A DNA stretch of 32,569 nucleotides from an uncultured virus (IMG/VR IMGVR_UViG_2049941000_000863) (lineage: Duplodnaviria; Heunggongvirae; Uroviricota; Caudoviricetes), in IMG/VR virus record IMGVR_UViG_2049941000_000863; one strand, given 5' to 3'. A program made the translations under genes and the position numbers. Under the pieces are notes generated by a model. The model searched no databases. It was not told the DNA's origin and was given only the letters and a program-made list of their open reading frames with translations. Below are positions 1-29,514 of this stretch, piece after piece. The stretch's first letter is position 1. The number at the start of each line of letters is the position of its first letter.

Positions 1-390
1 AGGGACTATACCCAGCGTTCAGATGTACAGGCGGCAATCACCCGTCAGCGTGAACTCCTGAAAGAGCAGTACGACCGCGCCCGCGCGACCAATGTGGTTG
101 CAGGAGGCACGGATGGGGCACTTGTCGCCCAGCAACAGGCCGCGAACAAGTCCCTGTCGGACACCATGACCGACATCGCGTCCCAGGCTTCCAGTTACAA
201 GGACAGGATTGAGCAGCAGTACCGCGCCCAGGATGCGGCTCTCAATCAGCAACAGGCCGCATCTTACCAGCAACAAGCCGCGCAGACCGCACAGGCCGCA
301 AGTCAGGCCGTCAATGCAGGAATCAATCTCGTCGGGCAGGATGTCGGCCTTACAAAGAAAAAGAACGAAATAGAGAAAACTGACGCTTGA
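1..390 (+). CDS. 5'-truncated Q/A-rich helical protein, putative small ejection/internal virion protein
   Basis: Frame 1 is open from base 1 (RDYTQRSDVQAAITRQRELLKEQYDRARATNVVAGGTD...) to TGA at 388-390. Q/A-rich coiled-coil composition; first of three tandem genes ending in the giant protein. Function is inferred from context. Confidence 0.65.
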   Translation, partial: RDYTQRSDVQAAITRQRELLKEQYDRARATNVVAGGTDGALVAQQQAANKSLSDTMTDIASQASSYKDRIEQQYRAQDAALNQQQAASYQQQAAQTAQAASQAVNAGINLVGQDVGLTKKKNEIEKTDA

Positions 391-395
391 CAGCC

Positions 396-844
396 ATGCC
401 GGACAAGAAGAAAACAAGAGCGCAACAGGCGCAGGAGGCATACGAGCAGCAGGCACAACAACTGGAGCAGACCGGGCAGGAAGTTGTGACCGGCCTCACT
501 ACTGCAGGCCAGCAGTACCAGCAGAGCCTCGACGCGGCCAACCAAGCCAGGACTGAAGCCTACAACCAGGCCCAGCAGATATACAAGCAGCGGATGGACG
601 AGGGTTACACCCAGTTCGCCGACATCATCGCAGGGGAGAAGGCCAGAGCCGACCAAGCCCAGCAGGAAGCAATCGAGCAATACAACAACGAGCAGAATGC
701 CGCCCGTTGGACTGGTGCGACCGAACTGGCCGCATCCATAGCGAACATGATTGCCGTGGGCGGTCATAATGCGGTCAGCCAGCAGTATCACTCCTATTCG
801 CAGGACTGGATGAAAAAGGCCGACGAGAACTGGAAGCAGAACCG
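396..844 (+). CDS. N-terminal part of Q/A/E-rich coiled-coil protein, putative ejection protein (continues into N gap)
   Basis: ATG at 396, 5 nt after the previous stop (MPDKKKTRAQQAQEAYEQQ...), with a hydrophobic/Gly patch (LAASIANMIAVGG). The ORF track's fusion with 1800-2820 across 953 Ns is not supported. Confidence 0.65.
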
Positions 845-1797
845 NNNNNNNNNNNNNNNNNNNNNNNNNNNNNNNNNNNNNNNNNNNNNNNNNNNNNNNN
901 NNNNNNNNNNNNNNNNNNNNNNNNNNNNNNNNNNNNNNNNNNNNNNNNNNNNNNNNNNNNNNNNNNNNNNNNNNNNNNNNNNNNNNNNNNNNNNNNNNNN
1001 NNNNNNNNNNNNNNNNNNNNNNNNNNNNNNNNNNNNNNNNNNNNNNNNNNNNNNNNNNNNNNNNNNNNNNNNNNNNNNNNNNNNNNNNNNNNNNNNNNNN
1101 NNNNNNNNNNNNNNNNNNNNNNNNNNNNNNNNNNNNNNNNNNNNNNNNNNNNNNNNNNNNNNNNNNNNNNNNNNNNNNNNNNNNNNNNNNNNNNNNNNNN
1201 NNNNNNNNNNNNNNNNNNNNNNNNNNNNNNNNNNNNNNNNNNNNNNNNNNNNNNNNNNNNNNNNNNNNNNNNNNNNNNNNNNNNNNNNNNNNNNNNNNNN
1301 NNNNNNNNNNNNNNNNNNNNNNNNNNNNNNNNNNNNNNNNNNNNNNNNNNNNNNNNNNNNNNNNNNNNNNNNNNNNNNNNNNNNNNNNNNNNNNNNNNNN
1401 NNNNNNNNNNNNNNNNNNNNNNNNNNNNNNNNNNNNNNNNNNNNNNNNNNNNNNNNNNNNNNNNNNNNNNNNNNNNNNNNNNNNNNNNNNNNNNNNNNNN
1501 NNNNNNNNNNNNNNNNNNNNNNNNNNNNNNNNNNNNNNNNNNNNNNNNNNNNNNNNNNNNNNNNNNNNNNNNNNNNNNNNNNNNNNNNNNNNNNNNNNNN
1601 NNNNNNNNNNNNNNNNNNNNNNNNNNNNNNNNNNNNNNNNNNNNNNNNNNNNNNNNNNNNNNNNNNNNNNNNNNNNNNNNNNNNNNNNNNNNNNNNNNNN
1701 NNNNNNNNNNNNNNNNNNNNNNNNNNNNNNNNNNNNNNNNNNNNNNNNNNNNNNNNNNNNNNNNNNNNNNNNNNNNNNNNNNNNNNNNNNNNNNNNN

Positions 1798-4700
1798 TTC
1801 TTTCCCAGGGCGATTATGATGCGAAGAAAGACAAACTGCACGAAGCCTATCCAGAGGCGAATGTCGTGGAGATGCAGGACTACAAGGCTGGTGAGGAAAT
1901 CGGGGATTCCGACTTCTTCATCAACATCCCTGGCACGACTGAACCGACACAGATAAGTGCAAAGGACTTTGCCGCGAAGCAGGACAAGATTTATGCGGCA
2001 TATCCCGATGTGCAGGTGTCTCGTATCCGTCAAGTGGACTATTATGGAGACAAACTGGGCGAAATCTATGACAGGGAGTCCGAACTGAAAGCAGAGTTGG
2101 AAGGACTTCCTGCCGAAACCAACGCAGCGGATCTCCGCAACATGGCCGACGAAGACCTTGTTGTCGAGGCTGGCCGCGTTACGAAGGAGAAGGCCGGCCT
2201 TGCCCGTCGTGCGGAAATCAACAAGGAACTCGACCAACTCTATCGCATGAGGGAGGAAAACCCTGCATGGAAGCGGTACTGGGCGAGCGTGAACAACGGC
2301 ATTGACGAGGACTACGCACGCATCGACAAGATGCAGTCAGACCTGCGAAAGGATAACAAGGAGGCGGCACGGAATTATGAGACGGCCAACCGTCTTGCCA
2401 TTACTGGCCCACAAGGAATGGGACTTGCGGCGGTCAAAATGTTGGAATCCGATCCCGAATACAACAGTTCGATGGAAAGCCTTTCCGCTGCCCGTCTTAT
2501 GCTGAATGACGCGAAGAAAGCGGCCACTGCACCGTCCAGGTATGGCGGTGACGACAAAGGCGCGTGGAGCGACTTTTGGCGTGGTATCAAGGACGGAGCG
2601 CCAGAAGCCTTGTCTGAGGCTCAACTCGTTCGTGCCGGCCTTAACATGCACCTTGTAGATGCAATCAAGAAGATTCAGAACGCGGAAGGGAAAGATGTAA
2701 GCATCCTCGACCTGGTAAAGGACGACAAGTTCAACGACATCGGTTATCTCAACGCTGGCGAAAAGGAACTCGTCAAGGCTTTCGTGAAGAAGGCCGAGGT
2801 GGAGGGCGGTCGTGGAGATANNNNNNNNNNTATCAGTCCGGCCAGAGTGCCGTGCAGTCGCTCGGATTCATGCTGGACTTCATGATGGTCGGAGGTGCAG
2901 GCGAGAAGGCGGCTGAAGCGGTCGCCGGAAACCTTGTCAAGTCTGCTGGTCGGAACGAAATTGCCAAGATAGGAGCGGAAACCCTGTATGGTACGGTAAA
3001 GGCCCTTGCCATGACTCCGCTGATGCCGTCCACCTATAACAACCTCATGAACAACATACTCCAGTTCAACGATGCGGGCGGTGTGGATTTGTCTGGCAAA
3101 GCCGTGGCTCGCGCAATCGGAGATGTTGTCATCGAGAACATATCCGAGACCGTCGGCAGCGTCCCAATGGAACTGGCAGGTATTCCTCTTTCCCGTGTCA
3201 AGTTCCCAGACTGGGCGAAGGCCATGCGGAACTCCGCGGTCGCATCTGCTTTGAGACAGGCCGGCTATCACGGCTTTATCGAGGAAATGGTTGAGGAATG
3301 GACGGGCAACGCCCTTCGCGTCATGACAGGCGTGGATAAGANNNNNNNNNNTACCAGACCGCTACGGCTCCCATGAATGTCAAGATGCAGACCGCGAAGG
3401 AGGCCGGTGCCGCCAGGACGCAGGGGGTCGTTACGGGAATCAATGTGGACCTTCACGAACGCCAACTCGAAGAACAGGCCGCGGCTCGGCGCGAAAGTGC
3501 CGCGGCAAGACGGGAGAACGCGGCAATCACCGCGGCACGATACGGACTGCGGAAGAACGACAAGGGAGAGTACGAAATCGATCCGAACTCTCCTGTCACG
3601 CAGGCGGCTCTCCGTGCTGGCTCTGGTGGGGGAAGTGGTGCAAGCCGGAATACCCTGTTCTATTACGATGCGAACGGACAACTAACGCCGGTCTATATGA
3701 CGGCCACGGAATATGACAAGTTCGTGGAACAGTCCTACGCATCGGTCAAGGACAACGAGGACTTCCAGAAGGCGTACCGGAGGGCAGCGACCGACATCGA
3801 GCGAAAGAGCATCATCTACGACTTTGCTACGCAGGTCCCGGAGCGTCGTTCCGTTTTGAGCCAGTACGGAACACGGCCCGAAAACTATGTGGAAAGACCA
3901 GAAACCGCGTCACCCGATACGAACACGCCCGGTTACGCGACCGGCAATAAGAAATCTACGCAGGACTTAATCAACAGCCTATTCAGTANNNNNNNNNNAT
4001 TGACGCTCGCGCAATATACCGCCGCATCCCGTTCTCTCAAAAAAGCCGGGACTTCCTTGGAGAAAGCGCTTGAAGTTATCAGCATGGACAAGTTGAGCAC
4101 TGAGGCAAAGAAAGCCCTTCTCAATACGGATTCGTTCAAGACTCCGGAGGAACTGGCACACCACCTTGCCGATGTCTATCAGCAGATCGTCGAGAACGGT
4201 GGCGATGCTGCCACGGCATACAAAGCCGTCATGGACTATGTTCAGGCCGATTCCCAGTACAAGGTCATGACAGGCATCTTCGAGGAGCAGAAGGACATCG
4301 ACCGCGGTCGCCGGCTGACGGAACTGAACACCCAGATGGGGAACGCGAACTGGCATCATGCAGCGAAGAACGGCGTGAGTTATGTACGCATCATCACGGA
4401 CGCTGACGGCAACGAGCGTTTTGTCACAGCGCGGGACGAAAACGGGTTGGCCCTTGTGGACAGGCAGGGGAACAAGACCTTTCTTTCCACGGAGGAACTT
4501 GCGGTCGGTATAGCAGACGGCTCTCTTACCGACAATGGCGAACAGGAGTTGTTCGATTACCTGGACAAGCAGACGGACATCAAGAAGAAGGCAGACGACC
4601 AGCAGCGCGTGGAGTTGGAGCAATTGCAGAACGAGACGGAACTGATGCGCCGCGCCCAACCGCAGACAGTAGTGAACATCGGCACGGTTGAAAACCCCGT

Positions 4701-7700
4701 CGAGGGAACGATTCTGCAATACGATGGCGGTCTATTCATCGTACAGGGTTCTGACGGTTCCGTGCACCANNNNNNNNNNTCCGTTTGAGACATCGACTGG
4801 CCTTCGTTATCAGGTGGACTACAATGAGAACGGGCATACGGTTCTTGACTTCTTCACGGAAGACCAGTTGAACTCCATTATCGGCATGTCCGAGCAGACA
4901 CCTGCCGTTGATGTTGCCGAGCAGACCGAGCCGGTTCCCGCCGACGATACTCCCCGTGACTTCCGCGGGAATCCGCTCCCGATGCGCACCAACAAAAAGA
5001 CCGGCCAGCAGACCGTGGACCAGAACGCCCTGTGGAACAAAGACCCGGAGGCGTGGGCGCGTTGGAACGACTCGAACCCCAGCCAGCGCGTGACGAGCAA
5101 GGAACGGATTGAATACACCCTTACCGAACTCAACAAGGAAATCGAGAAGGATACAAAGGCCGTCCAGAAAGCCGCGCTGAAAGGCATCGACGAAGACGAG
5201 ATGGACAACATGGAAGCCGCCCTGGGTGCGAAACTCGACAGGCGTGAACTCCTGCAATCCATTCTGAACAAATATAACCTGCCTGCCGAGGCCGGTCAGA
5301 CCGTGGCGGGCGAGCAGCGAAAGGCCGCTGCAGAACAGGTCAAGCAAGAGCAGAAGGCTGGTTTCCCTGGCATCCAGCAAAGATGGAACGAGACACCGAA
5401 GATTGTCNNNNNNNNNNGGTGCACCAGACGAGATCCGTCTGCCGAACGGGGAGACTGTCACCGGTAACTATGTGCTTACCGAGGCGTTTGCCCCTACTCC
5501 ATCCCATAACCCGGCCAACGGATTTTCCATGACGGAGGGATTCCCTGTGGACGAGAACGGAAAGACCGTGAATGACCGCGACTACGAGCGCGACAGGGCA
5601 GCGCAGCAGTCCGTCCTGGATAAAGCGGCCAAATACGACCAGCGTGCCCTGCAAACGCCTGTAATTGTTTCCGCTGACGGCGTTGTCCTATCCGGTAACG
5701 ACCGCACTATGGCAAGCCAGATTGCGGCAGCGCAGAATACCGACGGCGCGTATTTGGAATATCTCGCCAAGTATTCGCAGAAGTACGGCTTTANNNNNNN
5801 NNNNNNNNNNNNNNNNNNNNNNNNNNNNNNNNNNNNNNNNNNNNNNNNNNNNNNNNNNNNNNNNNNNNNNNNNNNNNNNNNNNNNNNNNNNNNNNNNNNN
5901 NNNNNNNNNNNNNNNNNNNNNNNNNNNNNNNNNNNNNNNNNNNNNNNNNNNNNNNNNNNNNNNNNNNNNNNNNNNNNNNNNNNNNNNNNNNNNNNNNNNN
6001 NNNNNNNNNNNATCCCAGTCCAAGACTGAAAAGGCCGTCAAAGCGGGGAAGACGCTCAATGCTGAATCACTGGCCTCCCTCGCAACGCTTGTGGACAGGT
6101 ACGACGACATCAACGCCCTGTACAACAGCAAGGAAGGAGTGAACGAACTACTGGACATCCTTCTTTCTGCAGAAGTCATCTCGCAGGAGCAGGTTGCGGC
6201 ACTCCGTGACGGCGATACCCTGTCCGGTGCGGGAATGGACTTGCTCGAAAGCACGCTTATCGGTGCGGCCCTGGACGAGGAAGCCGTGCGCGTTGCCATG
6301 TCCGACAAGAGCATCCGCAAGTCCGTTGTGTCCGCTATCTCGCAGATCCTTGTCGGCAACACCTTGAACGACTACATCCTCCGCACGGAACTGACCGACG
6401 CCATCACCCTTGTCGCCAACGGCAAGGCCCTTGGCGAAATCAAGTTCGGTGAAAGCGTGCAGGACTACATCCGCCAGCAGCACCTGTTCATGGACGATGT
6501 GGTCGCCGAGGCATCCGTCCAACTCCTTGCAGATGCAATCAACGACCGCAAGACTTCATTCCTGAAAAAAGTGCTATCTTTGTACAACAGGGATGCGGTG
6601 GAGTCGGCAAACGGCCAGATGAGCCTGCTCACGGGCGATGTCCTGACGAGGGAGGCCATTCTTCGCAACATCTTAGAATTCCTTGGATATGACACCAGAA
6701 TCATCTACGACACTTCCGAACGGGCAGCGGAACAACGAGAGCCCGCAGAACCGGCAGGCCCAGCAGACCGGCCAGTCGCCGCAGCAGAAACAGAACAAAC
6801 TCCTGCTCCTGTTCAAGGCGGTGAGGGAAGCCAGGTAAATCGCGCCCAGTACGATCGCGAGGAAGTCGCGGTCATCCTCGAACAGGGTAATGTCGGTGAG
6901 TACAACCTTACCGACTACATGACTGACGAGGAAGTTGCCGAGTTCGTCCGTCGCTGGGAGTCTTTCCTGCCGTTCAACGATGCGGTTGGCGAGGCATACA
7001 CCCGTCTCGATGCTGACCTTCATTCATCGGACAAGAAGAAAAAGAAAGCAGCGCAGGCCGAAATAGACCGGCTGGAAATGGCGCAGCAGGAAGCACATGC
7101 CCCGGTACAGGAGTATGTGGACGAACTCATTGAAAAGTATGGACAACTCGCAGAAGAAGAAATCGATGAAGTTGCCGAGGAGGAACTTGTCGATGAGGAA
7201 TACCAGGAGGATGCCGATGTAGAGGAAATCCCCGAAGATGAGGACGATGAACCGGAACCCACCAAGGGGAAAAAGGGGAAGAACGGAAAAGGAAAGGGGA
7301 CGAAAAAGGAGGAAAAGCCGTATGTCGTTAAGGGTAATGCTTCCGTGCTGACGGTAGCCAAGCAGACATACACCCAGGATGAACTCGAAGAATTTATCTA
7401 CAACGGCAGTTTCACCGAATACCAGAGCAAAAAGACAGGAGAAAAGATTCAGACCCTCTCGATAGGCGCACTTAGTCATGGGTCATTCAAGAATGATAGC
7501 GTCACAATCTGGAAATGGATGCCCGGTGCCGAACACACTGACCGGCGTGAGGCGACCGTTACGACTGACTATCTTCTCAAATACTTCAAGGCGAACAAGT
7601 TCAAGTGCCTCAGCAAAGACAAGTCGCGAAAGAACAAGCACGGATACTGGATCAACAGACATGGCGTCTGCATGAATCCTATCCGTATCGAACTCCCTTC

Positions 7701-10700
7701 AAGTAAGAAGGGATGGGCCAATTTTTCGTATGCGTACTTCTGGCAGGACGATAAGGACAAGTGGCATGCTGGCGGTTCCACATCATACGGGACTGGTGGC
7801 GGTTCGCTCGGAATGGATAGAACCGAACACAATACTAAGTCGGAGGCTATCAAGTCCGTCATTGAGGCACTGAAATATGAGCAGCAGCGACATACGGAAA
7901 AGAACAGGCAGACCAAAGACCGCGACAACCTGTTATCTACGCTCCAGTCCAAAACCCTTCCACAGGCTTTACTGGAAGAAGGAGTGGTGAACACCGTAAT
8001 GCGCGTAGATTTGTCCGATGCCGGCATTGAGGGAACACAGGGAGACCTGTTCGGCGGCGAGGNNNNNNNNNNAGGAAAGTCCGAAGAAGGGAAGTAAGGT
8101 CAAGAAAAAGACCACCAAGCGCAAGGCCCAGGCTGGCGTGGACCTGTTCGGTGGAGAAGTAGTCGAGGCACCAGAAGAATCCGACGAGGAAAGCGAGCCG
8201 CGCTTCACGCTTGAAGATGAAGAAGGCACGCCCGGCAACTTCCATTGGATTGCTGAAAGGGTCTGCACGAATCCGCAGATCATCACCATGCCCGGTGCGG
8301 ACAGGACAAGTTCCGTCCCGAAAGTGGCACTTGCTGAAAAAGAAGGAAAATGGTATGAATCCACCTACATCACGGCTGACGGAGGTGTCGGTTCGTCCTG
8401 GGGGAGCGTGTTACCGACCTTCAAGGCAAGGNNNNNNNNNNGTAAGGATGCGATAAATCACGCCATCGAGTTCATGCGGTTCATCCTCAATGACCGCGCA
8501 AAGAAGGCAGCGCCATACGGCGAGACCTTCACCGAGACGAAGGACCTCATTGACTACATCGTCAAGGTGGAACTGCCGAAAGAGGACGCGAAAAAGGAGG
8601 AAAGCGCCGAGGATGCGCTCGGATTTGTCAAAAACGCCCTCGACAACTTTGCCCAAAACGGGAACTATGCAAGGGTAGTGCACACCTTGGAATCATACCA
8701 GGACTTCTTCGGGGAAGATGTGGCGCAGGAAATTGACACCATTCTTTCCGACCTTCGGAAGAACGGCATCAGCAAGGAATCCAAGGATGAAATGGTACGC
8801 CGGACTGCCGAACTCTATAACCGGCTTGTCAATCCGCAAGCGGAGACCGAATCCGTTGAGGAACAAACCGAACCCGCTCCTGCATACGGCTCGCAGAACA
8901 CCATCATCACGACCGACAAGTATGAGGAACTGAAAAAGCGGATGAGAGAGAAACTGGGCCAACTCAATGCAGGGTTTGACCCGGAAGTGTTCTTCATCGG
9001 CGCGCAGATGGCCGCTTACCATGTTGAGGCCGGTGCCCGTAAGTTCGTGGACTTCGCCCAGCGCATGATTAAAGACCTGGGCGACGCTATCCGTCCCTAT
9101 CTGAAAGCCATCTACAACGGCGCTCGCGACCTTCCTGGCATGGAGCCGTTCAAGGGCGACATGGATTCCGCGTCAGCCGTGGACGGTATTGATGTGAACT
9201 CTATCGGAATTGAACAACCCGTTACGCAACCCAAGGAGGCATCACAACCGGAGCCTGTCGCTCCAGTCCAGCAAGTCGATGTGAACTCCCTGTTTGGTGC
9301 TGTCAATGACCTTGCACGCGGCAAGCGGAACGAGGTAAGAACTTCCGACTTCGCGACCCCTGTGAGTGTGGAAGAAACTACCGAAAACAGTAGGAAAACT
9401 CCCGAAGTTTCAGTAACTTTGCAAGAGAGCGAAGTGGGTGTCGATGCGTCCGATTATCGGACTTACATGACCGCCCAGGCGCGTGAGTTCTTTGCCAACG
9501 AAAACCCGGAATTTGCAAAGCCTGAACTGGCCTTCATTACGGAAGCGTCGGAGGACAATGTGGTTATTCCTGTCACGGAACTGGAGAAACTGCAGGAGGT
9601 CATTGATGCGGAGAAAGCCATCAAGGATGTTGGTGTCCGTGCGAAGGAGGAAACGGGAAGTGAATCACTCGTCCTGACTGACGAAGAAGTACAGGCGTAT
9701 TCAGACCGCCTTCTTGCCGACGACAACGGCAGTTATGCAGGGAAAAACGATTACTCCGGTCCTGTCGCAAGGGAAAAGAAAGCGTTCATCGTCATTGGCC
9801 GTCCGGCAGGAGGAAAGAGCAGCGTATTCGCAGATCCGTTGTCCAAGCAGCACAAGGCACGCATCATTGACAGCGACATCGTGAAGCCCTGGCTCCGAAA
9901 CTACAATGGCGGTGTCGGTGCCAACTATGTGAACGCTGCATCCGCAAAGGTCGCTGACGAGGCGATTATCAAGGCGGCGGAGCGTGGCGAGAACATCGTC
10001 ATCCCCAAGATTGGAGGCGCAAGTATTATCAATGAGATTGCCCTGCCTTTACGGGTCGCCGGTTACTCGGTCGAACTGTGCTTTAACGATGTGACCGAGG
10101 AAGCATCCATCATGCGGGCCGCGTCCAGATTTGCGCGGACTGGCCGGTATTTGAGCCTGCAGTACCTGAAAAGCATCGGCGATAAACCGAATAGCACATT
10201 CCGAAAGTTTGCTGACAAGAGCATAAAAGAATCAGTCTATGAACTATCTGAAAGACAAGTACAAGAGTTACGAAGAAGGATTAGCCGCCTATCTGGAATG
10301 GGAGGAGAGCATGCTGGAGCCCTACGAGAAACCGGCAACGGAGCAGGACAAGGCAATGTGGACGAAATCCTTCAAGCGGCTCTGGGAGAAAGAGGAACTG
10401 CATCCCAGGACGAACGGCTCTTTGCATCAGCCGTCTGGAAAAGNNNNNNNNNNNNNNNNNNNNNNNNNNNNNNNNNNNNNNNNNNNNNNNNNNNNNNNNN
10501 NNNNNNNNNNNNNATTTGGGAATCCGCGAGCGGGGAGCCAATCCCCGGAACTGAACAGGAAAACAAAGAATCCGACAAAGAATCGTTGGTTAAAGGGATG
10601 AAGGATAGACTTCATGCCTTTACGGAACCCGTTCAGTCTGTGGAAGCCTCTGGCCAGACCCTGGGCGAACTGGGCAAGTACACCCATACAAAGACCGGAC

Positions 10701-13700
10701 AGGAGATGTCCATTGTCCGTCTGACGGGCGACAGGCTGACCAAAGACGAGTTCAAGCAACTCAAATCCCGTGCAAAGGAACTTGGCGGCTACTATTCGTC
10801 TTATGGCGGTGCCAAGGGATTCCTGTTCGAGAACGAGGAAGACGCAATCAAGTTCAACACAATAAACGCACCTGAAAATGCCGAACAACAAACCGATGTC
10901 GAGACAGCAGCAGATACAGCAACTATTGTCAGCGAAGCGGCATCTATTGCAGTCGAAGCGCAATCTCTTGCGGAAGCAGAGGGCACAGGAGAGCAAGCAG
11001 CCGCAGAAGTAGTCACCCGTATAGACAACGCCCTGGAGTCCATCGACGACCAACTCGCCCTGCTCGGATACTACAAGGCTGACCAGACCGAACCGTTCCA
11101 TGAGAGTTACGGCTACATGAAGTCTGCCGAGAAGAAGGCCGTGAAGGATGCAGACAAGTTGGCTAAAAGACTGGCTGCGGATTTGGGACTCAATGTCGGT
11201 CGGAAGCAACTCGCCAAGGCTAATATCGCGCCTGCCGGTGGTGATGTGACCTTCCGGCTCCCTCTCAATGAGGGGCGTGAACTCTATGTGGACATCCACA
11301 TGGAACCGGATGCAGATGATAGTCTCATGATCCGCGGACTGGCCGTAGGTATTCAGGGACTTGACATCATGTATCGTGTCGAGAATCCCTCCGCTACCGG
11401 AGCCGAAAAATACGGACGGAATTACTACACCAGTTATAATGCAACCTATGACGAAATCCTCCGTGGTGTCCGGAATGCCGCTCGCGATTATCTGCCGGAG
11501 TCACAAGTCCAAACAGGTCCTGTCGATGTACTGCAAGTCGCTAAAGAACAGGCCGANNNNNNNNNNATGAGGTAAACACCGACGCGCCTGCCGCCAGGGT
11601 CAAGCCGACCGAGGTGAACGGATACAGGATTGGGGAGAAGGTTCAGTACAGGCCCAGCCAGGGAGACCGTTCCACCCAGGAGGCTACCATTTACGATTTC
11701 GAGAATGACGGACGGCCCGTGCTTGATGCCGGCCTCGCTCCAGTTCTCTATGAGGTTGTAGAGTGGGAGCAGATAAGCAAGATTGAAGAACCTGTAAACG
11801 ATACAGACAATGACCGTAGTGAACAACCACAAGGAGTACCAGCAGGCACTGGAAGCCAAGGCGAAAGCGCTGGGCAAGAAAGTGTCCGACCTGACCGAGG
11901 CGGAGAAGGAGGACGCGAGGGAGACCTTCATGGCCGCTCACGGGCTCTGCGACCTCGATATGATGATTCCGTAAAGCGGAATACACGCAACAATCGCGTT
12001 GCGAAGGGCGAGGTCGTCTATCCCAAGACACCTGCCGCACGATTCAAGGCAAATATCGCCGCCATCCGTCTGCTGAAAGAATTGCAGGATAGCGGAAAGA
12101 ACGCGACCAAGGAACAAATGGCCGTGCTCCGTCAATATACCGGCTGGGGTGGTCTTGGCGGTTACTTCAACAACGAATACTCTGCGGAACACCGTGAACT
12201 CAAATCCTTGCTTACCGATGAGGAAATGGAGGCCGCGGCCCTTTCCATCAACACGGCATACTACACCCCTGTCGAGGTCATTGACAACATGTGGGAGGTA
12301 GCAAAGCGTCTCGGTTTCCAGGGCGGCAATATCCTCGAAGGGTCTGCTGGAACTGGTGCTATCCTTGCCTCCATGCCGAAAAACATCAGCGAGCGTAGCG
12401 CAATCACCGCCGTCGAATTGGACAACATCACGGGCGGCATCCTCGGTCTCCTGTACCCTGACGCAACGGTGCATGTGCAGGGATTCCAGGAAACGGACAT
12501 CCCCAATGGAAGCATAGACCTTGCCATTACCAATGTTCCGTTCGGGGACATCAATGTCTATGATTCCAAGGAAAAGGACATCACGAGGAAGTTCGGAGGC
12601 AAGATCCACGACTTCTGCATCGCGAAGAATATCCGCAAACTCGCCCCAGGCGGTCTCGGCATCTTCATCTCAACCCGTGGCACGCTGGATAACAGCAGCA
12701 AGGCACTTCGCCAGTGGATTGTGAACGAGGGAGAGGCCGATGTAATCGGAGCGTTCCGTCTGAACAATGAGACCTTCGAGGGAACCGGAGCAACTTCCGA
12801 CATCATCGTAGTCCGCAAGCGCGTCAATGGCAAGGTGTCTCCCAACGCGATTGATGTGACCGACACGCAGATCACCCGTCGCGAGGATTATGTGCTTGAC
12901 GATAGGGAATGGAATCCCAAGACCCGCGCCTATGAGTACAAGACCGGAAAGGCGGCGATGGAACTCAATACCTATTTCGTTGAGCACCCGGAGAACATGG
13001 GCGGCGAAATGGGATTCGGATTCGAGCACAAGGATACCTATCGCCCCGGAAGTTCCGCGCTCTGGCCGTCCGAGAAGATTGACCAGAACAAGCGTCTTGC
13101 GAAATGGGCGAAGCAGTTCTCGTCCATGCAAGTTGAGGAGCAGGCCGTCACCGCTCCGGCCGAAACCGAAGTGGAGGAATCCAATGCGACCAAGGAAGGA
13201 CAACTTGTCACCAACTCCAAGGGAGAGATATGTATCTCCCGCAGCGGAAAGGCGATTCCCTTGGGCGTTAATGCCCAGAAAGTGAAGGGATATTCCAAGG
13301 CGCAGGTGCTTTCTGACTACAACGCGCTGAAAACAGCCATCAACGAAGTCCTGGACTATCAGTTGAAGAATGAGTCGGACGAAGGATTGAAGCCTCTCCT
13401 GTCGAAACTGAACAGGGCGTACGACACCTTTGCGCACCGCTATTCCAGACTGAACCGCAACACGGCCATTTCGTTCCTTCGCAACGATGTGGACTTCCCG
13501 GCTATCGCCGCCGTGGAGGACTACAAGGAGAAGAAAACCATTGACGGCAAGGTGTTATATCCCGTACANNNNNNNNNNATGTGAAGAAAACCAGCATCTT
13601 CTCCGGTCGTGTCCTTGGTGCGAAGCGCGTCCCGACCCCGAAGGACGCGAAGGACGGCGTTATCGTGTCCATGAACCAGTTCGGTCGGATTGATGTACCA

Positions 13701-16700
13701 TTCATCGCAGACGCGCTCAACAAGGACGAGGATACCGTGCGTCAGGAAATCCTCGATAGCGGTCTTGGATTCGAGAATCCGCTGACCGGCGGCATCGAGG
13801 TTGANNNNNNNNNNNNNNNNNNNNNNNNNNNNNNNNNNNNNNNNNNNNNNNNNNNNNNNNNNNNNNNNNNNNNNNNNNNNNNNNNNNNNNNNNNNNNNNN
13901 NNNNNNNNNNNNNNNNNNNNNNNNNNNNNNNNNNNNNNNNNNNNNNNNNNNNNNNNNNNNNNNNNNNNNNNNNNNNNNNNNNNNNNNNNNNNNNNNNNNN
14001 NNNNNNNNNNNNNNNNNNNNNNNNNNNNNNNNNNNNNNNNNNNNNNNNNNNNNNNNNNNNNNNNNNNNNNNNNNNNNNNNNNNNNNNNNNNNNNNNNNNN
14101 NNNNNNNNNNNNNNNNNNNNNNNNNNNNNNNNNNNNNNNNNNNNNNNNNNNNNNNNNNNNNNNNNNNNNNNNNNNNNNNNNNNNNNNNNNNNNNNNNNNN
14201 NNNNNNNNNNNNNNNNNNNNNNNNNNNNNNNNNNNNNNNNNNNNGAACCGCGCTGCCGGTGTTCGCAGTAATGTGCTGAACATCGACAAGCGAGGGCATG
14301 AACTCATGATCGCGGCCATGAACAATAGTTCCGTCGTGTTCTCGCGTTCCTACAAGGACCCCGTGACGGGCCAGACCATCACGGAACATGACAAGGAGGC
14401 AACGCAGGCCGCTACCGCGAAGATGTCCGAGATGAGAGACGATTTCAAGGAATGGGCGCGCGCAAAGATGCTGGACGAACCGGAACTTGCCCAGCGTATC
14501 GGGAAGGTGTACAACGACACTTTCAACGCGATTGTCCCGAAAGAAATCAAGGACACATTCCTCCCTGCTCATTTCGAGGGCATGGCCACCAAACTGAACA
14601 ACGGCAAGGAACTCCACCTGCGCGAACATCAGTCCAAGGCGGTTATCCGTGGCACGACCGAGCCGCTTATGCTGGCTCACGAAGTCGGAACCGGAAAGAC
14701 CTTCACGCTCATAGCGACCGCGATGGAGATGCGCCGGCTCGGTACGGCAAAGAAACCCATGATTGTCGTGCAGAACGCGACACTGGGCCAGTTTGTCAGT
14801 TCAGCGAAGGAACTCTATCCGAACGCTAAGGTTCTAACCATTTCCGAAGCAGACCGCACCGTTGAGGGGCGCACAGCCTTCTATGCAAAAATCAAGTACA
14901 ACGACTGGGACATGATTATCGTCCCGCAGTCGGTGTTCGAGATGATTCCGGATAGCGAGGAACGCCAGCGTGCGTTCATCCAGGAGAAGATTGACGAGAA
15001 GATGTTCATCCTCGAACAGGCAAAGCAGGCCAATAATGCCAGTGCTGAGCGTCAGTTGAAGAAGGAACTGGAAGACCTGCAGTATGAATACCAGTATGGC
15101 GAGAAGCCGCCGAAGAAGGGCAAGGCAGGTAAGAAAGATGCGAAGAAGGAAGCCGAGGCGAAAGTCAATGCCGCTGCAAGGGCGCAGAAACAACTCGACC
15201 GCAGGACGGACGATGTGTCCGACTTCGACGACATGGGCATTGATGCACTGCTTGTCGATGAGGCCCATTCCTACAAGCACCTTGGATTCTCGACCGCCAT
15301 GCAGCGCGGAGTTAAAGGCGTGGATTCTACGGGCTCCAAGAAATCTGCCGGCGTATATCTCAAGACTCGCGCTGTCTTTGATAAGGCCGGCTGGAAGAAT
15401 GTAATCTTTGCGACAGGTACGCCTATATCCAACACCGCAGCGGAGATCTGGACCTTCATGAAGTACCTCATGCCGGACGACATGATGCGTCAGAACCATA
15501 TCTACTACTTCGATGATTTCGTCCGCAACTTCGGTAACATCGCGCAAAGCCTGGAGTTCACGACAAGTGGCAAGTTCAAGGAGAACACCAGATTTGCCTC
15601 TTACACCAACCTGCCCGAACTTATCCGCATCTGGTGGTCGGTTTGCGATACTGTCCGTTCCGAGGATGCCGTGGCCGAGGGTGGCGAGAAACTGGAGGAC
15701 AAGCAACCGAAGATGGAAAACTGGACGGGCGCGGATGGGCGCGAGCATGTGAACCAGGCCCGTGACATCTATCTGCCTCAGTCCGGTTCGCTTGTGGACA
15801 TCATGAACTATGTCCGTCAGCACCTCGAAGAGTACGAAAAAATGTCCGGTAAGGAGAAGAAGGAGAACAGCCATATCCCGCTTACCATGTTCGGCAGGGC
15901 ANNNNNNNNNNGAGGAAGGCGAGTTCGACAATCCTGTGGCCGTCCTTTCCGGAAGTCAGTATGCGCTGCTGAAATCGCAGGCCGAGCGCGAACTGCGTAA
16001 ACTCCGCAACAAGAAGGAGCAGTACAGGCAGGACCAGATTTACATCGAGCGCACACTGAAAGACAATAACAACCGGATAGAATACGACAAGAAACTCATT
16101 GACGAGGCAAAGGCGAACCTTGCCAAGGTAAAGAGCACTTTCCCGGACGGCAGCGTGAAGGAAATCACAATCTCTGGCCGTAAGGCGAAGGGTGCGGAGC
16201 AGATTGGGGAGGCTATCAAGGAAAAGATTACCGGGCCGCTTCGCGAACTGGTGGAGCGTCGTAGGAACGATCGCGGATTCACGACCGAGGACAAGCATTA
16301 TACCATGACCTTCGACGGCGTTTCCGTTGATGTGAAGGTTGGTATAGACCGCACTCAGGAGTGGAACGACAAGACCTACCAGTACAAGCCTGTCATGCGA
16401 ACCCGCGTAGAGTATTCCTGCCCGTCCATCGGGCTTGTAGGGCACTATATCATGGGCGGCATGAACGGAATCAAAGACATTCCACAGGAATTTATCGCTA
16501 CATTCGCATCCGGGAAATACTTTGAGCAGGCCGTCACCAACCTGGAAAATACAATCTCCCGTCTCAATGCGGACAACGACTTGATGCTGCAGCGTCGCGG
16601 TAAGCCTTTCGCCGACGAGGACAAACTTCAGAAGCAGGAGGAAGTCGTCAAGGACTACACCGAGAAGATGAAGGCTGAAATGGCCGAAAAGGAAAAGAAG

Positions 16701-19700
16701 TACGCTGAAATGGCAAATCATGGCACACCCAACGAAATGGCCGGTTTGAGTCAGCGGCTTGAAGGTGTAGTCATGGACGAGGACGAGGACGGTGAAGGAG
16801 AGACGCACAATAGCGAAGTAAATAGGAATGCGCCGAAGTTGAATATGAATGATCCTACCGTAGTCGCACAGGCCGTTTCTTCCGTGAACAGACTTGCAAA
16901 GCGACTTGGACTTCGTGTCGTATTCGATAGCGGACTGCAAAGCAAGGGTGCGTACACCGAAGGCACCGACTTCGTGCGAATCAATCTTGCCAACTGCGAA
17001 TCCGTGGACGATGCCGTTGAAACCCTGCTCCATGAAGGTGTGGCCCATTTTGGACTGCGCGAAATGCTCGGCGAACAGGGGATGAAGGACTTCATCGCAG
17101 ATGTCCTGGAAAAGGCTGCTCCAAGCATCCGTGCGAAGATTCAGGACATGGCCGAAGAAAACGACTGGACCCTGGAATACGCAGCCGAGGAATCCGATGA
17201 GGAAATGGAGGCCGNNNNNNNNNNNNNNNNNNNNNNNNNNNNNNNNNNNNNNNNNNNNNNNNNNNNNNNNNNNNNNNNNNNNNNNNNNNNNNNNNNNNNN
17301 NNNNNNNNNNNNNNNNNNNNNNNNNNNNNNNNNNNNNNNNNNNNNNNNNNNNNNNNNNNNNNNNNNNNNNNNNNNNNNNNNNNNNNNNNNNNNNNNNNNN
17401 NNNNNNNNNNNNNNNNNNNNNNNNNNNNNNNNNNNNNNNNNCATTGCAGGACTGGCGCAAAAGACCGACTACACAAAGGCCGAGCGTGGCCTGTGGCGCA
17501 GGATACTTGAAGCCGTCCGCAATCTCATTTCCACCATTACGGGCAGGGATACCTACATCACGGATGATACTATCCGAGAAATGCTTGTCGCCTCTTACGC
17601 CCGTCTGGAGGAAGAAGCGGCCAATACTTTCGAGAATAGCCTTAAGAGACAAATCGAAGGAACGCTCCCGGCAGGCTATGTTCATAAACTTGGCCTCCCT
17701 GGTGCCATTCTCCGTAGTGTAGGCGTGCCGAACATGCCTATCAATCTTGCCGCATCCCGTCTTGCCGAAAAAGCGAATAATCACGATTACACACTCGATG
17801 AGTTAAGTGGCCTTGTAGATGCAATCAATAATCCAATTGCGGTTTTTGCAAGGGGTAAGGGCGATGATGTGGCGAGAGACCTTATCGTTGAGATAGAACA
17901 CAATGGGAAAAACTTTGTCGTCGGCCTGTATCTGAATCCCGTGGTTGGCGGTCAGCGACTGGAGATTAACAGTATCAGGACTGTTTATCCGAAGGATACG
18001 GACGAGTGGGTGCGCTGGATCAAGTATGGCCGGGCAAAGTATCTGGACAAAGAAAGAATCAAGGCCATCATTGCCGAACAGCGAATGACTTTCGCTGACG
18101 TCAGCAGTGATGACCTGAATGNNNNNNNNNNAATATAATTGATTTTTTTGAGAATCCAAATACTTCCGGCATTTATGATGAAGGAGTTACGCATTATCGA
18201 CTCCGCACTAAACCTGCTCCCAAGAAAACCGGCATAGGCTATAAGGTGTTCTATCGTGGAAAAGACGGGAAACTCTATCCTCCTATGGTCGCCAATCCCA
18301 ATGGCGAGGCAACACCCGTTGGAGTATGGCTTGATGCAGATGCGGCACCTGTGGCTGGTCAGAGCAAAACGGGCCGTCCACAAGTCAAGGCAGGCGGCAA
18401 AGGAACGCAGGGTGGAAGTGGTACGCTCGCATATCGTCCTGGCTGGCATCTTGGCGAAATCCCTTACGCTATCCAGTTCAACAGGATTAACCCTGCGAAT
18501 GGTCAGAAAGAACTGTTCCCGCGTGACTTTGTTTGGGCCGAGGTTGAATATGCTGCCGACAACGACTATCAGAAGGACGCTGAGGCCGAAGGCATCAATG
18601 CAAACGGTAAGTTCCAGCACTCCCTTGCCGGATTGAAACGGGTCCCGGAAGATGGTTTTTACCGATACCGCACTAACCCGAATCCGGAAACCGACCCCTG
18701 GATTATCACCGGAGCCATGAAGGTCAATCGCATCCTCTCGAACGATGAAGTGGACGAGATTGTCCGTGCTGCCGGGCGTGAACCGCAATTACGCGAGGGG
18801 GATGTGGTACGAAACCGCGTCGCTGGCGTGGACGGCTTCATTTCCAATGCGGAGGCTGCGGTCAATGCAATCCAGATGGAGAAGGCTACTCCCCAGCAGT
18901 GGTTGAAGATGATTGAGGGCAAGGGCGGTCTCAAAGCCGGAGAGGACAAGTGGATTGGCCTGTCCGATTGGCTCGAAGCCTCAGACCGCAAGACGCTCAC
19001 CAAGCAGGAGGTCCTGGAATATATCAATCAGAACAAGATTCAGATTGATGATGTGGCCTACACTGATGCGGACAATATCCCGATGGGCGGCGATAATGAG
19101 TGGAATCAGATAGTTGAGCAGCGTTATGGACGCGATGTTTTCTCGGCTTTCCGTTTCTATCCTGGGGACGGAGGAACCTCCACGGAGTTCGTGGACGAGG
19201 ATGTGGCTGCGGATGTTTATCGCAGACTCCAACATGATTACGACTATGACTACCAGATTGTGACTCCAAACGAAGGACAGCCGTATTCTCGGCTCGATAT
19301 GTATTGGATGAAACAGATAGCAGAAAGGATTGCTGATTATGGAGACGGCCAGATGCGCATCAAATATGGTAGAACCATTCATCCTACCAGGATTACTTAT
19401 ACTACGGATGGCCTTTCCAACAAGCGCGAGATCGCGCTGACCGTCCCGACGATTGAGCCGTGGAATCAGCAAGACAATATCCATTTCGGCGATGCTGGTG
19501 AGGGGCGTGCTATCGCGTGGGCAAGGTTCGGTGATGCCTTCGTGGACGAAGAAGTTGTCGTGAAACCCGAAGATAAGGCCGAACTTGAACGCCTGAATAA
19601 GAAAGTCAAGGATGCTTTCGATAAGGCAGACAAGGAACCTTCGGACGAAAACCGTGATGCTTTCTTAGCCGCAAGGGACGAAAGGGACGCTTTTGCTGGA

Positions 19701-22700
19701 CGGACTAATGCCCGTGGTGGGATCAGACGGCGCAGGGTGCTTTTCATCNNNNNNNNNNAAATCGCAAAGAAGCACGGTGTGGAAGTCGAAACGCTCGACG
19801 ATGTGGCGACATCGGAAGAAAAACAACGAGCCGCGGATTACAATAATCGAATTTCCGAGTTAAGGAAACAAGGTGGTGTTCCTGCCGCACCCTTTGAGAA
19901 GAACTGGCACGAACTGGCCATGAAGCGGATGCTCCGTCTTGCTGCCGAGGAAGGATACGACTATGTGGCATGGACTACCGGCAACCAGCAGTCTGAAAGA
20001 TACAATATCGGGGGCGTTGTCGAAGAGATTGGGAGAATGAAAGATAGGAACCTCAATGAAAAGCAGTTCATAGTCTTTCTGAAAGGTAGAGACCATTCAA
20101 AATACATTACCACGGACGATAATGGAAATGTCGTATCTACGACTGTAGCAGACTTCAATGGGAAGAACCTATCAGAGATAGTCGGGAAGGAACTTTCCGT
20201 CAAGATGCTCTCAATGAAAGAAGGCGATTTCATCCGCGGTGATAATCTCCGTATAGGTGGACAGGGCATGAGGGGTTTCTATGACGAGATCCTGCCGCGC
20301 TTTATGAACAAGTACGGCAAAAAATGGGGTGTGTCCACCAATGATTTGCTTGTTGGCCTTAACCGTGGACTTTTCGTTGAGGCTCATGCCGTCAGGGTCA
20401 CTCCGGAAATGCGTGAATCCGTCATGCAGGGCCAGATGATGTTCCGTTTCATCGGTGAAAAGGGAGCGGACAGGGCAGATGCAGTAAGCCCCATTGAGCG
20501 CCGTATGGAAACGGTCGAAGTGCCGAGGAAGGGTCTTGCTAAACTTTTCGGCAGCAAGAAGTTCAAGACGGTTGAAACTGCGGTCACGCGGATTGACAAC
20601 CTCAATATCGCAAAGAAGATGCAGGCAGACGGGATAAGACCGGAGGACATCAAACGGGCAACCGGGTGGGAAGTTGGCAGGGACGGAAAATGGAGATACG
20701 AGGAAAGCGATGTGTCCATAAATGAAGACTTCCTCCAACACATACAGGGAAAGAGCCTTGACGAACTGTCCAGCGAGACATATCCGCTCGGCCAGATTTT
20801 GAAAGACGGGCAAGCGAAGGATATGCTTTTCACCGAGTATCCCGAACTCTCCGAAATCAAGGTGTCTTTCTATAACGATTCCTGGTTCGATTTTTTCAAC
20901 TTGACAAGGGGATATTATAACCCCGTCACCAAGAAACTGATGCTTAACCCCAAGGGGGCAGGTTGGCTATTTACCAAGAAGCCGGATGCGAAGGAACTGT
21001 CCAGCACAATGCTCCACGAGATACAACATGTGATACAACATATCGAGGGATTCGCACAGGGCGGCAACACTTCAATCGTGGACAAGTATGGTAATATAGC
21101 GGAACTGAAGTCAAGGCAGGAGCAGATAGCGCAAAGAATTGAGGAAATCCTTAACTCCGATGACAAGTATCGCGAACTCAACGAACGATATGAGCGAATG
21201 AAGGACGAGGAAAGCGATGGGTATAAGGAGCATCAAAAAAGGTGGAACGATGCTGTCGCAAAGTTCGAGGCCGAGGATGAGGAATACCAAAAGAGGTGGA
21301 ATGAGACGGAAGATAGGATTGCCGAGGTAAGGAAGGCAAGGCTCGCAAAGAAAATGAGCGATGAAGATGCGACGAAGGAACTCCAAAAACAAGCCGACAT
21401 AAGGTGGGAACTTCTCAAGAACAAACCACGCTATCCAANNNNNNNNNNNNNNNNNNNNNNNNNNNNNNNNNNNNNNNNNNNNNNNNNNNNNNNNNNNNNN
21501 NNNNNNNNNNNNNNNNNNNNNNNNNNNNNNNNNNNNNNNNNNNNNNNNNNNNNNNNNNNNNNNNNNNNNNNNNNNNNNNNNNNNNNNNNNNNNNNNNNNN
21601 NNNNNNNNNNNNNNNNNNNNNNNNNNNNNNNNNNNNNNNNNNNNNNNNNNNNNNNNNNNNNNNNNNNNNNNNNNNNNNNNNNNNNNNNNNNNNNNNNNNN
21701 NNNNNNNNNNNNNNNNNNNNNNNNNNNNNNNNNNNNNNNNNNNNNNNNNNNNNNNNNNNNNNNNNNNNNNNNNNNNNNNNNNNNNNNNNNNNNNNNNNNN
21801 NNNNNNNNNNNNNNNNNNNNNNNNNNNNNNNNNNNNNNNNNNNNNNNNNNNNNNNNNNNNNNNNNNNNNNNNNNNNNNNTGTCGCGACAATGACGATGTG
21901 GTGCGCACCGTCCTTCACGAAGGGGTCGGCCACAACGGACTGCGCAGGCTCATCGGTAACGAGAATATGCGAGACTTCTGCCTCGACTTGTTCATCAGCC
22001 TGCCGAAAGCCGTGCGTGCCAAGATTGCGAACGATGCGGTAACGAAGTATGGCGGTAATGTCGTGGAATCAGTGGAGCGTTTTGCCGCAAACGATGTTAT
22101 CCGCGAGGTGGGAAAGGAAGCCATGTTCGAGTCCACCGAGGAATGGTTGGCCGAAACTTCCGAAACAATCGACTATAAAAACTATCGCAGGAATGTGTGG
22201 GACATCATCCGTGATGCCCTGCGCAGGGTGCTGGCGAAAGTCGGAATCAATGTCCCCTTATCCATCCGCGATGTGAAATGGCTGATGGTCCAGTCCGCTA
22301 TGGCGAACCATGAGACGGACCCGACGGTCGAGGCAAGACGGCAGGTAGTAGCCAACGCGCTCGGATTTACGCTGAAACAACAGTCCGAAAAATACGAGGC
22401 CGTACAACTTTCCAGAAACAGGATCGCAGAAGAAACCCTGGCACCTGCGGCTCGGATATATAACAAGGATGTGCTGTACTGGTTCAACCGCCTACATGAG
22501 ACATGGGTGGACAAAGACAATGCCGTCCACCAACTTGTGAACGCAATCGAGAAGGCGACCGGAAAGGCTGCAAAGGCTTTCGAGGACATCCGTCTCGCGC
22601 TGAACCAACAGAGTTCCAAGGGTCTTGCCGCAATCGAGAAGTTCGAGCGAGAGTGCTGGGCACCCATGCAGGAGGCCATCCGTTCACTCATGAATGAAAA

Positions 22701-28453: not shown

Positions 28454-28454
28454 T

Positions 28455-28499
28455 TTGGGAAAGATAGACCAAGGGGACGGCTTGCCGTCCCTATTTTCG
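28455..28499 (+). promoter_or_regulatory. Candidate phage late promoter, copy 1 (TTGGGAAAGATAGACCAAG-N22-TTCG)
   Basis: 19-bp exact repeat with 30619-30637; both copies are intergenic and have TTCG at identical spacing. Confidence 0.6.
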
Positions 28500-28502
28500 T
28501 TG
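28474..28502 (+). terminator. Probable intrinsic terminator after the tail gene
   Basis: GGGACGG-CTTG-CCGTCCC hairpin followed by TATTTTCGTT. Confidence 0.6.
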
Positions 28503-28524
28503 TGTAAACTACAACTACGCAAAA

Positions 28525-28887
28525 ATGGAACTGATTACGATTATTCTATCAAGCCTGCTTGCCCTGTTAGGAGGACTGAACATTTTCCAGTTCCTGTTCT
28601 TCCGCTCAACCAAGAAGGAGTACCAGGCGCGGGCAGAACAAGCCGTACTGGAAGCAAAGGATGCCCGATTTGAATCGTTGCAGAACCAGATACGAAGCAT
28701 GGAAGAACTATACCGCCAGCAAAGTGATACATTGGCGCAGGTTCGGAAGGAACTTCTCGACATCGCCAAAAAGAAAATGGAAAGTGACAAACGGGTCGCC
28801 CAACTCGTCCGCANNNNNNNNNNNNNNNNNNNNNNNNNNNNNNNNNNNNNNNNNNNNNNNNNNNNNNNNNNNNNNNNNCATCAATAG
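28525..28887 (+). CDS. Holin-like membrane protein (N-terminal TM helix plus coiled coil); 3' end uncertain (gap)
   Basis: MELITIILSSLLALLGGLNIFQFLFF then a charged coiled coil; directly upstream of the endolysin. Confidence 0.6.
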   Translation: MELITIILSSLLALLGGLNIFQFLFFRSTKKEYQARAEQAVLEAKDARFESLQNQIRSMEELYRQQSDTLAQVRKELLDIAKKKMESDKRVAQLVRXXXXXXXXXXXXXXXXXXXXXXHQ

Positions 28888-28890
28888 CAA

Positions 28891-29514
28891 ATGATCGTCC
28901 TCATCGACAACGGGCATGGCGTGGAAACGCGCGGCAAGGGTTCGCCGGATGCACTGAAAGGGCAGACTGGTTCGACCCTGTATTTCCGCGAGTATTCGTG
29001 GACGCGCAAGGTCTCGCAGGCTTGTTGCGATGTCCTCCAGGCGCGTGGATTACAGGCGTGGCTCCTTGTCCCGGAGGAAAATGACATCCCGCTTTCAGTC
29101 CGCACAAANNNNNNNNNNTTCTGCCGGAAATACGGCAAGGACAATGTGCTGCTCGTGTCAGTCCATAACAACGCGGCTGGAGACGGGAGCCGGTGGATGA
29201 ACGCAAGGGGTTGGTCCATCTATACCAGTCCGGGCGTTACGAAATCAGACTATCTCGCAGAGGCCATTTATCAGGTCGCGAAAAAAGAGTTTTTGAGTCC
29301 GCTCACCGTCCGAAAGAAATGGGATAAGTATCTGGAGCGAGACTTTGAGGAAAACTTCTATCTCCTTACGAATACCCTATGTCCGGCTGTCCTTGTGGAG
29401 AACTTCTTCCAGGACAACAAACTCGATGTCCGTTTCCTTCTCTCAGACAGGGGTATTGGGTCGTGCATCCATGTCATAACGCAGGGGATAGAGGACTATA
29501 TCAAAAACAAATAG
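28891..29514 (+). CDS. Endolysin, N-acetylmuramoyl-L-alanine amidase (Amidase_3)
   Basis: Zn-amidase motifs IDNGHG, FRE, VSVHNNA and PAVLVENFF; no signal peptide. Confidence 0.93.
   Translation: MIVLIDNGHGVETRGKGSPDALKGQTGSTLYFREYSWTRKVSQACCDVLQARGLQAWLLVPEENDIPLSVRTXXXXFCRKYGKDNVLLVSVHNNAAGDGSRWMNARGWSIYTSPGVTKSDYLAEAIYQVAKKEFLSPLTVRKKWDKYLERDFEENFYLLTNTLCPAVLVENFFQDNKLDVRFLLSDRGIGSCIHVITQGIEDYIKNK

Follow-up and report, generated by a model that had tools for sequence, protein, structure and literature searches.

Probable small genes nested in the +1 frame of a giant polyvalent-protein gene of Bacteroidales gut phages

The analyzed DNA is a virus record of 32,569 nucleotides from an uncultured member of the Caudoviricetes (IMG/VR IMGVR_UViG_2049941000_000863); this whole stretch is referred to below as the window. 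On its plus strand it carries one giant open frame, the main frame, which is interrupted by runs of N only. Inside this giant gene lie four short open reading frames (ORFs) that begin with ATG, each in the +1 frame relative to the local main frame. They are designated here by their first positions, i.e. ORFs 6689, 10239, 10878 and 11810 (Table 1), and all four were found exactly where the initial annotation had placed them.

The window contains 28 N-runs (2979 N in total), which are spread over positions 845-31476 and in 18 of 28 cases consist of exactly 10 N. One frame is open in each of the 19 stretches that separate them within the giant gene. The number of the main frame shifts at several N-runs (e.g. 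8063-8072 and 11557-11566), so the N-runs do not preserve length and window coordinates modulo 3 cannot be used across them. In relatives, more than 5000 codons of the main frame are free of stops.

Pfam domains identified in the main frame above curated cut-offs are ddrB-ParB, Zeta_toxin (match spanning about 9770-10225), SNF2/ResIII, MuF_C, LPD23 and LPD38. The best tblastn match of the main-frame part 11569-13566 (50%) is to a "DarB-like antirestriction" gene of the Bacteroides phage BKO1-TP3. On the basis of the domain content and the DarB-like match, the host gene is assigned to the phage polyvalent proteins as defined by Iyer, Burroughs, Anand, de Souza and Aravind (2017; PMC5512222). 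It is a textbook member of this class, joining many unrelated effector and LPD domains (MuF_C, ddrB-ParB, a zeta-like kinase, a methylase-helicase and LPD) in one giant phage polypeptide.

Table 1. Positions of the nested ORFs and of the main-frame features discussed in the text
Feature	Position	Strand	Remarks
Nested +1 ORF, 49 amino acids (aa)	6689..6838	+	+1-selected part: last ~20 codons (about 6776-6835, 'NKLxxLxxAxxx')
Nested +1 ORF, tail of zeta module, at least 67 aa	10239..10443	+	stop masked by N-run at 10444
Nested +1 ORF, 44 aa	10878..11012	+	+1-selected core about 10905-10976 ('QQIQxLLxAKxxLLQxK')
Nested +1 ORF, 54 aa	11810..11974	+	stops 3 nt before conserved methylase N-terminus
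Giant polyvalent-protein ORF, main frame	384..25641	+	open segments between N-runs; Pfam domains
ddrB-ParB domain, main frame	5418..5792	+	PF18763, E 1.1e-7
Unnamed conserved domain, main frame; its C-terminal end carries the start of ORF 6689	6013..6690	+	tblastn, 52 loci
Zeta-kinase module, main frame	9452..10549	+	Pfam Zeta_toxin, E 6.7e-10; PDB 1gvn_B, E 2.5e-6; module alignment
DarB-like N6-methylase domain, main frame	11977..13566	+	tblastn to phage 'DarB-like antirestriction' genes

The initial annotation located the four ORFs right after the ParB domain, inside the tail of the zeta-like kinase, in mid-linker and right before the methylase. These placements hold except for the first, since ORF 6689 does not directly follow the Pfam ddrB-ParB match and is instead found where the next conserved domain ends. 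ORF 10878 and its relatives sit between two unnamed domains.

The length of the four ORFs is not beyond chance. The +1 frame of the giant gene contains 32 ATG-initiated ORFs of at least 40 aa (maximum 131 aa), compared with four in the +2 frame, and the four ORFs are not the longest among them. There are also 42 stop-free +1 runs of at least 50 codons, and from the density of stops 50 open codons are expected with a probability of 0.18. The ORFs might thus be chance shadows, as hydrophilic linkers devoid of NTA and NTG codons leave the +1 frame open for free.

Codon usage, which the initial annotation had proposed to examine per frame in sliding windows, singles out three of the four ORFs. Among 1372 windows of 40 codons, only 22 score better in an alternative frame than in the main frame, and all 22 are located within 6688-6852, 10169-10423 or 11779-12003. 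The switch of the main frame to A-ending codons reported for these stretches is a consequence of the genetic code. Position 2 of the +1 codons is position 3 of the main-frame codons, and residues encoded by codons with A at position 2 (N, H, K, E, Y, Q and D) make up 23 of the 54 residues of ORF 11810; the main frame therefore shows A-ending codons. A switch of the giant protein's own frame to +1 in these stretches was considered and rejected, as each ORF is flanked by +1 stops.

The comparison of the ORFs drew on more than 100 related loci, whose sources are viral contigs, genomes of Bacteroidales, metagenomes and a single isolated phage of Bacteroides. With a main-frame methylase query, 80 viral loci were collected (81 including the window). 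The +1 peptide of ORF 11810 matches 31 of these 80, with E values down to 1e-10, and performs better than the peptide that the main frame encodes there; each match is a short +1 ORF within a main frame that is open for 2995-5355 codons. Between the window and locus L001, one of its closest relatives, the +1 peptide of this interval is 91% identical and the main-frame peptide 78%. A +1 span of at least 45 codons lies just upstream of the methylase N-terminus in all 81 loci, and in 80 of them it is a protein-like ORF that begins at a conserved Met. In the 81st locus (L018) a homologous pre-methylase ORF is present about 1.7 kb further upstream.

All 30 loci identified in Bacteroidales genomes (Prevotella, Muribaculaceae, Bacteroides, Alistipes and others) also carry the pre-methylase ORF. 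In 25 of them the surrounding frame is open for at least 1769 codons, while the giant gene copies of the remaining five are broken or short. Some bacterial copies of the giant gene (L108, L105 and L114) are split into many frames, like decaying prophage remnants. The small ORF is intact in one broken copy (L108:3378-3629) and itself damaged in L114.

The domain that carries the start of ORF 6689 was found in 52 loci; after removal of two short hits and addition of the window, 51 were considered. In 49 of these 51 loci (37 distinct sequences), a +1 ORF begins 4-16 nt ahead of the end of the domain. Of the two others, L099 was dropped because of N and one failed the span filter. In this family the ATG is retained although the main frame encodes different residues over it (YG, NA, YD). 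A further scan for relatives of region 6013-7212 returned only the contig of L001. In L003 the equivalent position is occupied by a different, longer +1 peptide (L003:3396-3701), whose codon usage is better than that of the main frame. A +1 peptide with the QQIQ motif of ORF 10878 was detected in 42 of the 81 loci (33 distinct sequences), and its start is at the same offset in the seven distinct loci in which both main-frame anchors were found.

The zeta module has few relatives: a single-protein scan returned none, and an alignment scan only four viral and seven metagenome loci. All ten distinct loci with complete modules (the window, L017, L019, L020, L084, L115, L116, L117, L119 and L121) contain a +1 ORF of 61-84 codons that starts 103 nt after the kinase SRFA motif. 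Six of the ten peptides are of the window type (MNxLxxKYKSYEEGL), and four belong to a second, acidic type. A protein search with the zeta-tail peptide identified 18 called proteins of 61-67 aa. One of these, P0078 (67 aa), is 85% identical to the window peptide and ends at window residue 67, so the hidden stop of ORF 10239 probably lies at the start of the N-run. According to a blastn map, the closest relatives L001 and L003 lack the whole zeta module (about 9354-10656), nested ORF included, in one block. The zeta cassette, including the nested ORF, measures approximately 1.3 kb and is replaced in the closest relatives by approximately 0.36 kb of other sequence (L001:5625-5982).

Counted over distinct sequences, the ATG is kept in 67 of 68 members of the 11810 family, 33 of 33 of the 10878 family, 37 of 37 of the 6689 family and 10 of 10 of the 10239 family, and the main frame is stop-free over every nested ORF. 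The conservation of ATG, stop and peptide in homologues, proposed as a check in the initial annotation, was thus confirmed, and it extends over dozens of loci whose peptides share 40-50% identity. For the 11810, zeta-tail and 6689 families this was observed in loci picked independently of the +1 frame.

Several further ORFs of this kind were noticed. When the 80 loci were scanned for codon usage, 75 ORFs were flagged in which an alternative frame is favoured. All of them are in the +1 frame and none in +2, and they form recurrent clusters that include two families absent from the window. One additional +1 family, 'M..EAMYWLAVVQQAN.GDKEAQEVLRQENELR...PTV.EEL', is found in 19 flagged loci about 3-3.5 kb upstream of the methylase but not in the window (e.g. 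L006:4212-4454, L032:3918-4115 and L123:6197-6364, the last from isolate BKO1-TP3). Another, 'MNRIEEAK.WI...KEAK.KYK...', occurs in three zeta-carrying loci (L017:2706-2933, L018:3141-3368 and L020:3546-4037). Single +1 ORFs with codon usage better than that of the main frame are present at L002:15156-15329, L003:15255-15455, L050:13059-13184 and L051:6489-6617.

The genome of BKO1-TP3, isolated on Bacteroides koreensis, holds two nested +1 ORFs (L123 6197-6364 and 8681-9010) within a single annotated coding sequence (CDS) of 16,662 nt that adjoins the portal gene. The earlier remark that such ORFs escape annotation is borne out in this isolate; elsewhere, gene callers called 69 and 18 proteins with matching starts and lengths. 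In the window, too, ORFs are present 3′ of the giant gene (25613-32567).

Substitutions were then assigned to codon positions of both frames. The 107 analyzed pairs of the 11810 family (3-30% nucleotide divergence) show 955, 738 and 1818 differences at +1 codon positions 1, 2 and 3, respectively, and the ratio of nonsynonymous to synonymous substitution rates (dN/dS) is 0.235 in the +1 frame versus 1.63 in the main frame. The adjoining methylase N-terminus, which served as a control, gave 1847, 1225 and 5978 differences by main-frame position and a dN/dS of 0.092 in the main frame versus 1.93 in +1. In a frame-blind blastn alignment of the window with L001, the differences by main-frame position are 323, 198 and 1054 overall, and main-frame position 1 varies more than position 3 only in the segments 6779-6928, 10799-11008 and 11759-11968.

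In the 10878 and 6689 families the signal is confined to a part of the ORF. A 24-codon core of the former has a dN/dS of 0.17 in +1 versus 1.30 in the main frame; its N-terminal part is constrained in the main frame (0.97 in +1, 0.14 in main) and its C-terminal part in neither. The C-terminal motif of the 6689 family has values of 0.29 in +1 and 2.34 in main, while its N-terminal part is a shadow of the end of the main-frame domain (1.43 in +1, 0.19 in main). The initial annotation had judged these two ORFs less gene-like, yet a core of approximately 20-24 codons is constrained in the +1 frame of both. Since the N-terminal parts appear main-constrained in alignments that were built on the +1 peptides, the method is not simply biased toward +1.

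Two close pairs were available for the 10239 family. The proportions of synonymous and nonsynonymous differences (pS/pN) are 0.38/0.081 and 0.46/0.106 in +1, and 0.149/0.136 and 0.225/0.150 in the main frame, i.e. a pN/pS of about 0.21-0.23 in +1 versus 0.66-0.91 in main. The zeta kinase core, taken as a control, has a main-frame pS/pN of 0.56/0.086. The frame-specific dN/dS analysis suggested in the initial annotation therefore gave the same outcome for all four families, in that substitutions follow the +1 frame, and the nested frames are under purifying selection of their own beyond that of the host frame, as measured over pairs that are not independent. In the overlaps, selection acts on the +1 peptide, and the main frame is merely kept open as a poorly conserved hydrophilic linker.

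These data make it highly improbable that the four ORFs are chance shadows. Their peptides, ATGs and stops are kept in dozens of loci, where the main-frame peptide is less well conserved, and the idea is contradicted by substitutions that follow the +1 frame, with the pattern reversed in the control region.

Nor do we give much credence to conservation at the nucleotide level (an RNA structure, an internal promoter or a packaging signal) or to a main frame produced by frameshifts in assembly. The recurrence of TAA at a similar distance before many nested ATGs and the A/T-rich leaders could speak for a nucleotide signal, and the richness of the window in frame-shifting N-runs for an artefact. 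A three-base periodicity in which the +1 third position is the most variable, however, indicates coding, and the same layout recurs in more than 100 loci from separate assemblies and in an isolate genome for which one CDS is annotated. Moreover, +1 stops close the nested ORFs at either end, but none interrupts the main frame. Either explanation is very unlikely.

We consider it very likely that the four ORFs are real nested genes, which form conserved families of their own, are selected in the +1 frame, are initiated internally and encode probable partners of specific modules. The products would be small proteins of about 45-70 aa, and the two that were folded in silico are predicted to be helical. 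As judged from their distribution, each family is tied to one neighbouring module of the polyvalent gene of Bacteroidales gut phages: the 6689 family to the end of the domain after ddrB-ParB, the 10239 family to the inside of the zeta module, the 10878 family to the stretch between two unnamed domains and the 11810 family to the position directly before the DarB-like methylase.

The peptides would be made by internal initiation at the conserved ATG behind an A/T-rich leader. The 21 nt upstream of the nested ATGs have an A+T content of 0.67-0.75 (A 0.41-0.55); for the 28,975 ATGs that these loci contain in total, the value is 0.507 (A 0.296). Such leaders fit the A-rich initiation regions, free of Shine-Dalgarno sequences, that Bacteroidota use. 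Across families, a +1-frame TAA in the context ATAAA/GTAAA is found about 12-17 nt before many nested ATGs; examples of such leaders are 11791-11809, 10860-10877 and 10220-10238 in the window.

Programmed +1 ribosomal frameshifting would instead yield truncated polyproteins with a conserved C-terminal helix and not free small proteins. The constraint on only the distal core in the 6689 and 10878 families is what would be expected of such an appended tail, and the called protein P0093 resembles a fusion of this kind, though there it is due to a DNA frameshift. P0092 and P0093 both switch between the main and the nested frame, and their contigs carry indels at the overlap. We regard frameshifting as improbable, because the ATG is kept nearly everywhere, including where the main-frame residues over it vary, and because in most members a +1 stop 1-8 codons before the ATG leaves almost no room for frame entry. 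The region upstream also resembles an initiation region in its A/T-richness, and the peptides of the 11810 and 10239 families are conserved over their entire length, first residues included. A search for longer, in-frame fused forms returned six proteins; the four that were read are +1 ORFs with a long leader or frame chimeras caused by indels.

The kept ATGs, the open main frame and the A/T-rich leaders thus lead us to infer that initiation is internal and that the main frame runs across the nested gene as a linker under little constraint. The strict preference for +1 may have a simple reason: in this layout a main-frame stop can arise only from a small-gene codon that ends in T, and synonymous codons offer a way around it. 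The nested third positions are T-poor (0.03-0.14 versus 0.198 at main-frame third positions), which fits avoidance of main-frame stops, but the nested third position is simply main-frame position 1.

No nested peptide matched a Pfam or PHROG family (E ≤ 0.01, above curated cut-off), and the ESM Atlas yielded no usable look-alike. The AlphaFold2 model of the ORF 11810 peptide from the window is a two-helix hairpin with a predicted local distance difference test score (pLDDT) of 67.4. The L017 homologue of the zeta-tail peptide, modelled from only six sequences, gave three helices with a pLDDT of 89.2 and a predicted template modelling score of 0.73.

Small helical proteins are genetically tied to zeta-type kinases in the epsilon/zeta and PezA/PezT systems. 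Seven zeta-tail peptides and that of the window showed no sequence likeness to epsilon or PezA by Pfam or PHROGs, and a Foldseek search of PDB with the zeta-tail model returned no hits at E ≤ 0.001, with neither epsilon nor PezA among the rows shown. Whereas the epsilon gene is a separate one immediately upstream of the toxin gene, the ORF described here lies inside the tail of the kinase module, in the +1 frame.

Partner function is suggested by the binding of each family to one module. The peptides probably act on the adjacent domain, for example as an inhibitor, an assembly factor or a co-factor, and nesting would guarantee that a domain and its partner are inherited and recombined as one cassette. 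Several points weigh against the reading of the ORFs as nested genes for partner proteins, or narrow its basis. Co-inheritance is the ground for the suggested partner function; no family, fold or stand-alone homologue indicates a function, and the model of the window ORF 11810 peptide is only moderately confident. The dN/dS values pool non-independent pairs, many of the loci being close relatives, and the alignments used for selection were built on the +1 peptides. The 10878 family was collected by similarity of the +1 peptide, so its 42 of 81 loci are those with a match and not a presence rate. For the window ORF 6689 the sole close comparison, with L001, shows 5, 12 and 12 differences by +1 position and favours neither frame. 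An unfused, stand-alone small gene was not found in the loci inspected, including the 30 genome loci.

The initial annotation proposed that the nested ORFs are partner genes retained and bridged by read-through when effector genes were fused. The codon usage of three of the four ORFs and the linkage to modules agree with this proposal, while the unfused arrangement that it implies was not encountered. By the usual argument, a small frame that is more gene-like than the main frame is the older one, which fits the bridging of pre-existing genes; on this sequence-based ground the proposal is plausible.

Embedded +1 genes are already known, Rz1 being embedded in the +1 frame of Rz. The Rz/Rz1 spanins of lambda and its relatives are likewise a case of a small phage gene inside a larger one, with cooperating products, and embedded, overlapped and separated layouts are reported from related phages (PMC6139136, PMC5295617). 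Rz1 carries a signal sequence and is a lipoprotein of the outer membrane, whereas the nested peptides, as read from their translations, are acidic or polar and have no signal sequence. In further contrast to Rz/Rz1, several different nested genes occur per giant gene, each in a read-through linker, and no separated layout was found among the loci inspected here. An embedded o-spanin of the Rz1 type was considered and rejected, as the translations contain no hydrophobic signal or lipobox and the host gene encodes a polyvalent protein. A sub-threshold Rz-like PHROG match (E 0.027, one of 13 members) was taken as noise.

A second parallel is the ShiLan insertion in DNA methylase genes of actinophages, in which a stop-free stretch of the host frame, read as a loop, likewise hides a complete out-of-frame gene with a start and stop of its own, for an HNH endonuclease (PMC11855218). 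That gene encodes a homing endonuclease, and the unit is a selfish insertion of patchy distribution (PMC11855218), whereas the small proteins described here have no nuclease match and each is fixed beside its domain in the relatives carrying that domain, under purifying selection. In the polyvalent-protein paper (PMC5512222), a term search found "overlapping", "frameshift" and "linker" to be absent and "reading frame" to occur in one passage, on neighbouring small ORFs; nested genes are not described under these terms. A literature search, with supplements outside its range, found no paper describing nested genes in polyvalent proteins. Embedded +1 genes as such are therefore not new, and we found no published description of them in polyvalent proteins.

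The initial annotation further suggested that the peptides are built-in antitoxins or chaperones left behind on injection, and none of the analyses run supports either this role or the idea of retention. More speculatively, and with considerable doubt, the giant genes may be assembled from cassettes, each composed of a domain and a small partner hidden in a linker readable in the -1 frame, so that recombination could never part the two. Such partners might be made in the infected cell at assembly and not injected, and might hold the kinase, the methylase and other domains inactive or fold them for packaging. They could then represent a general, unannotated second coding layer of the polyvalent proteins of phages, and perhaps of plasmids, created by a new kind of gene fusion in which a small gene was bridged and not deleted.

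Polyvalent proteins are regarded as major counter-defence weapons that phages and conjugative elements inject, and they are always annotated as single genes. If each module carries a hidden partner protein, catalogues of gut-phage genes miss whole protein families, of which at least six recurrent ones were seen here, and experiments in which the zeta kinase, the methylase or another domain is expressed by itself may lack a natural regulator. BKO1-TP3, an isolated phage with two such ORFs, makes the idea directly testable. The layout would then also show that genes can be fused while the small gene between the fused parts is kept.

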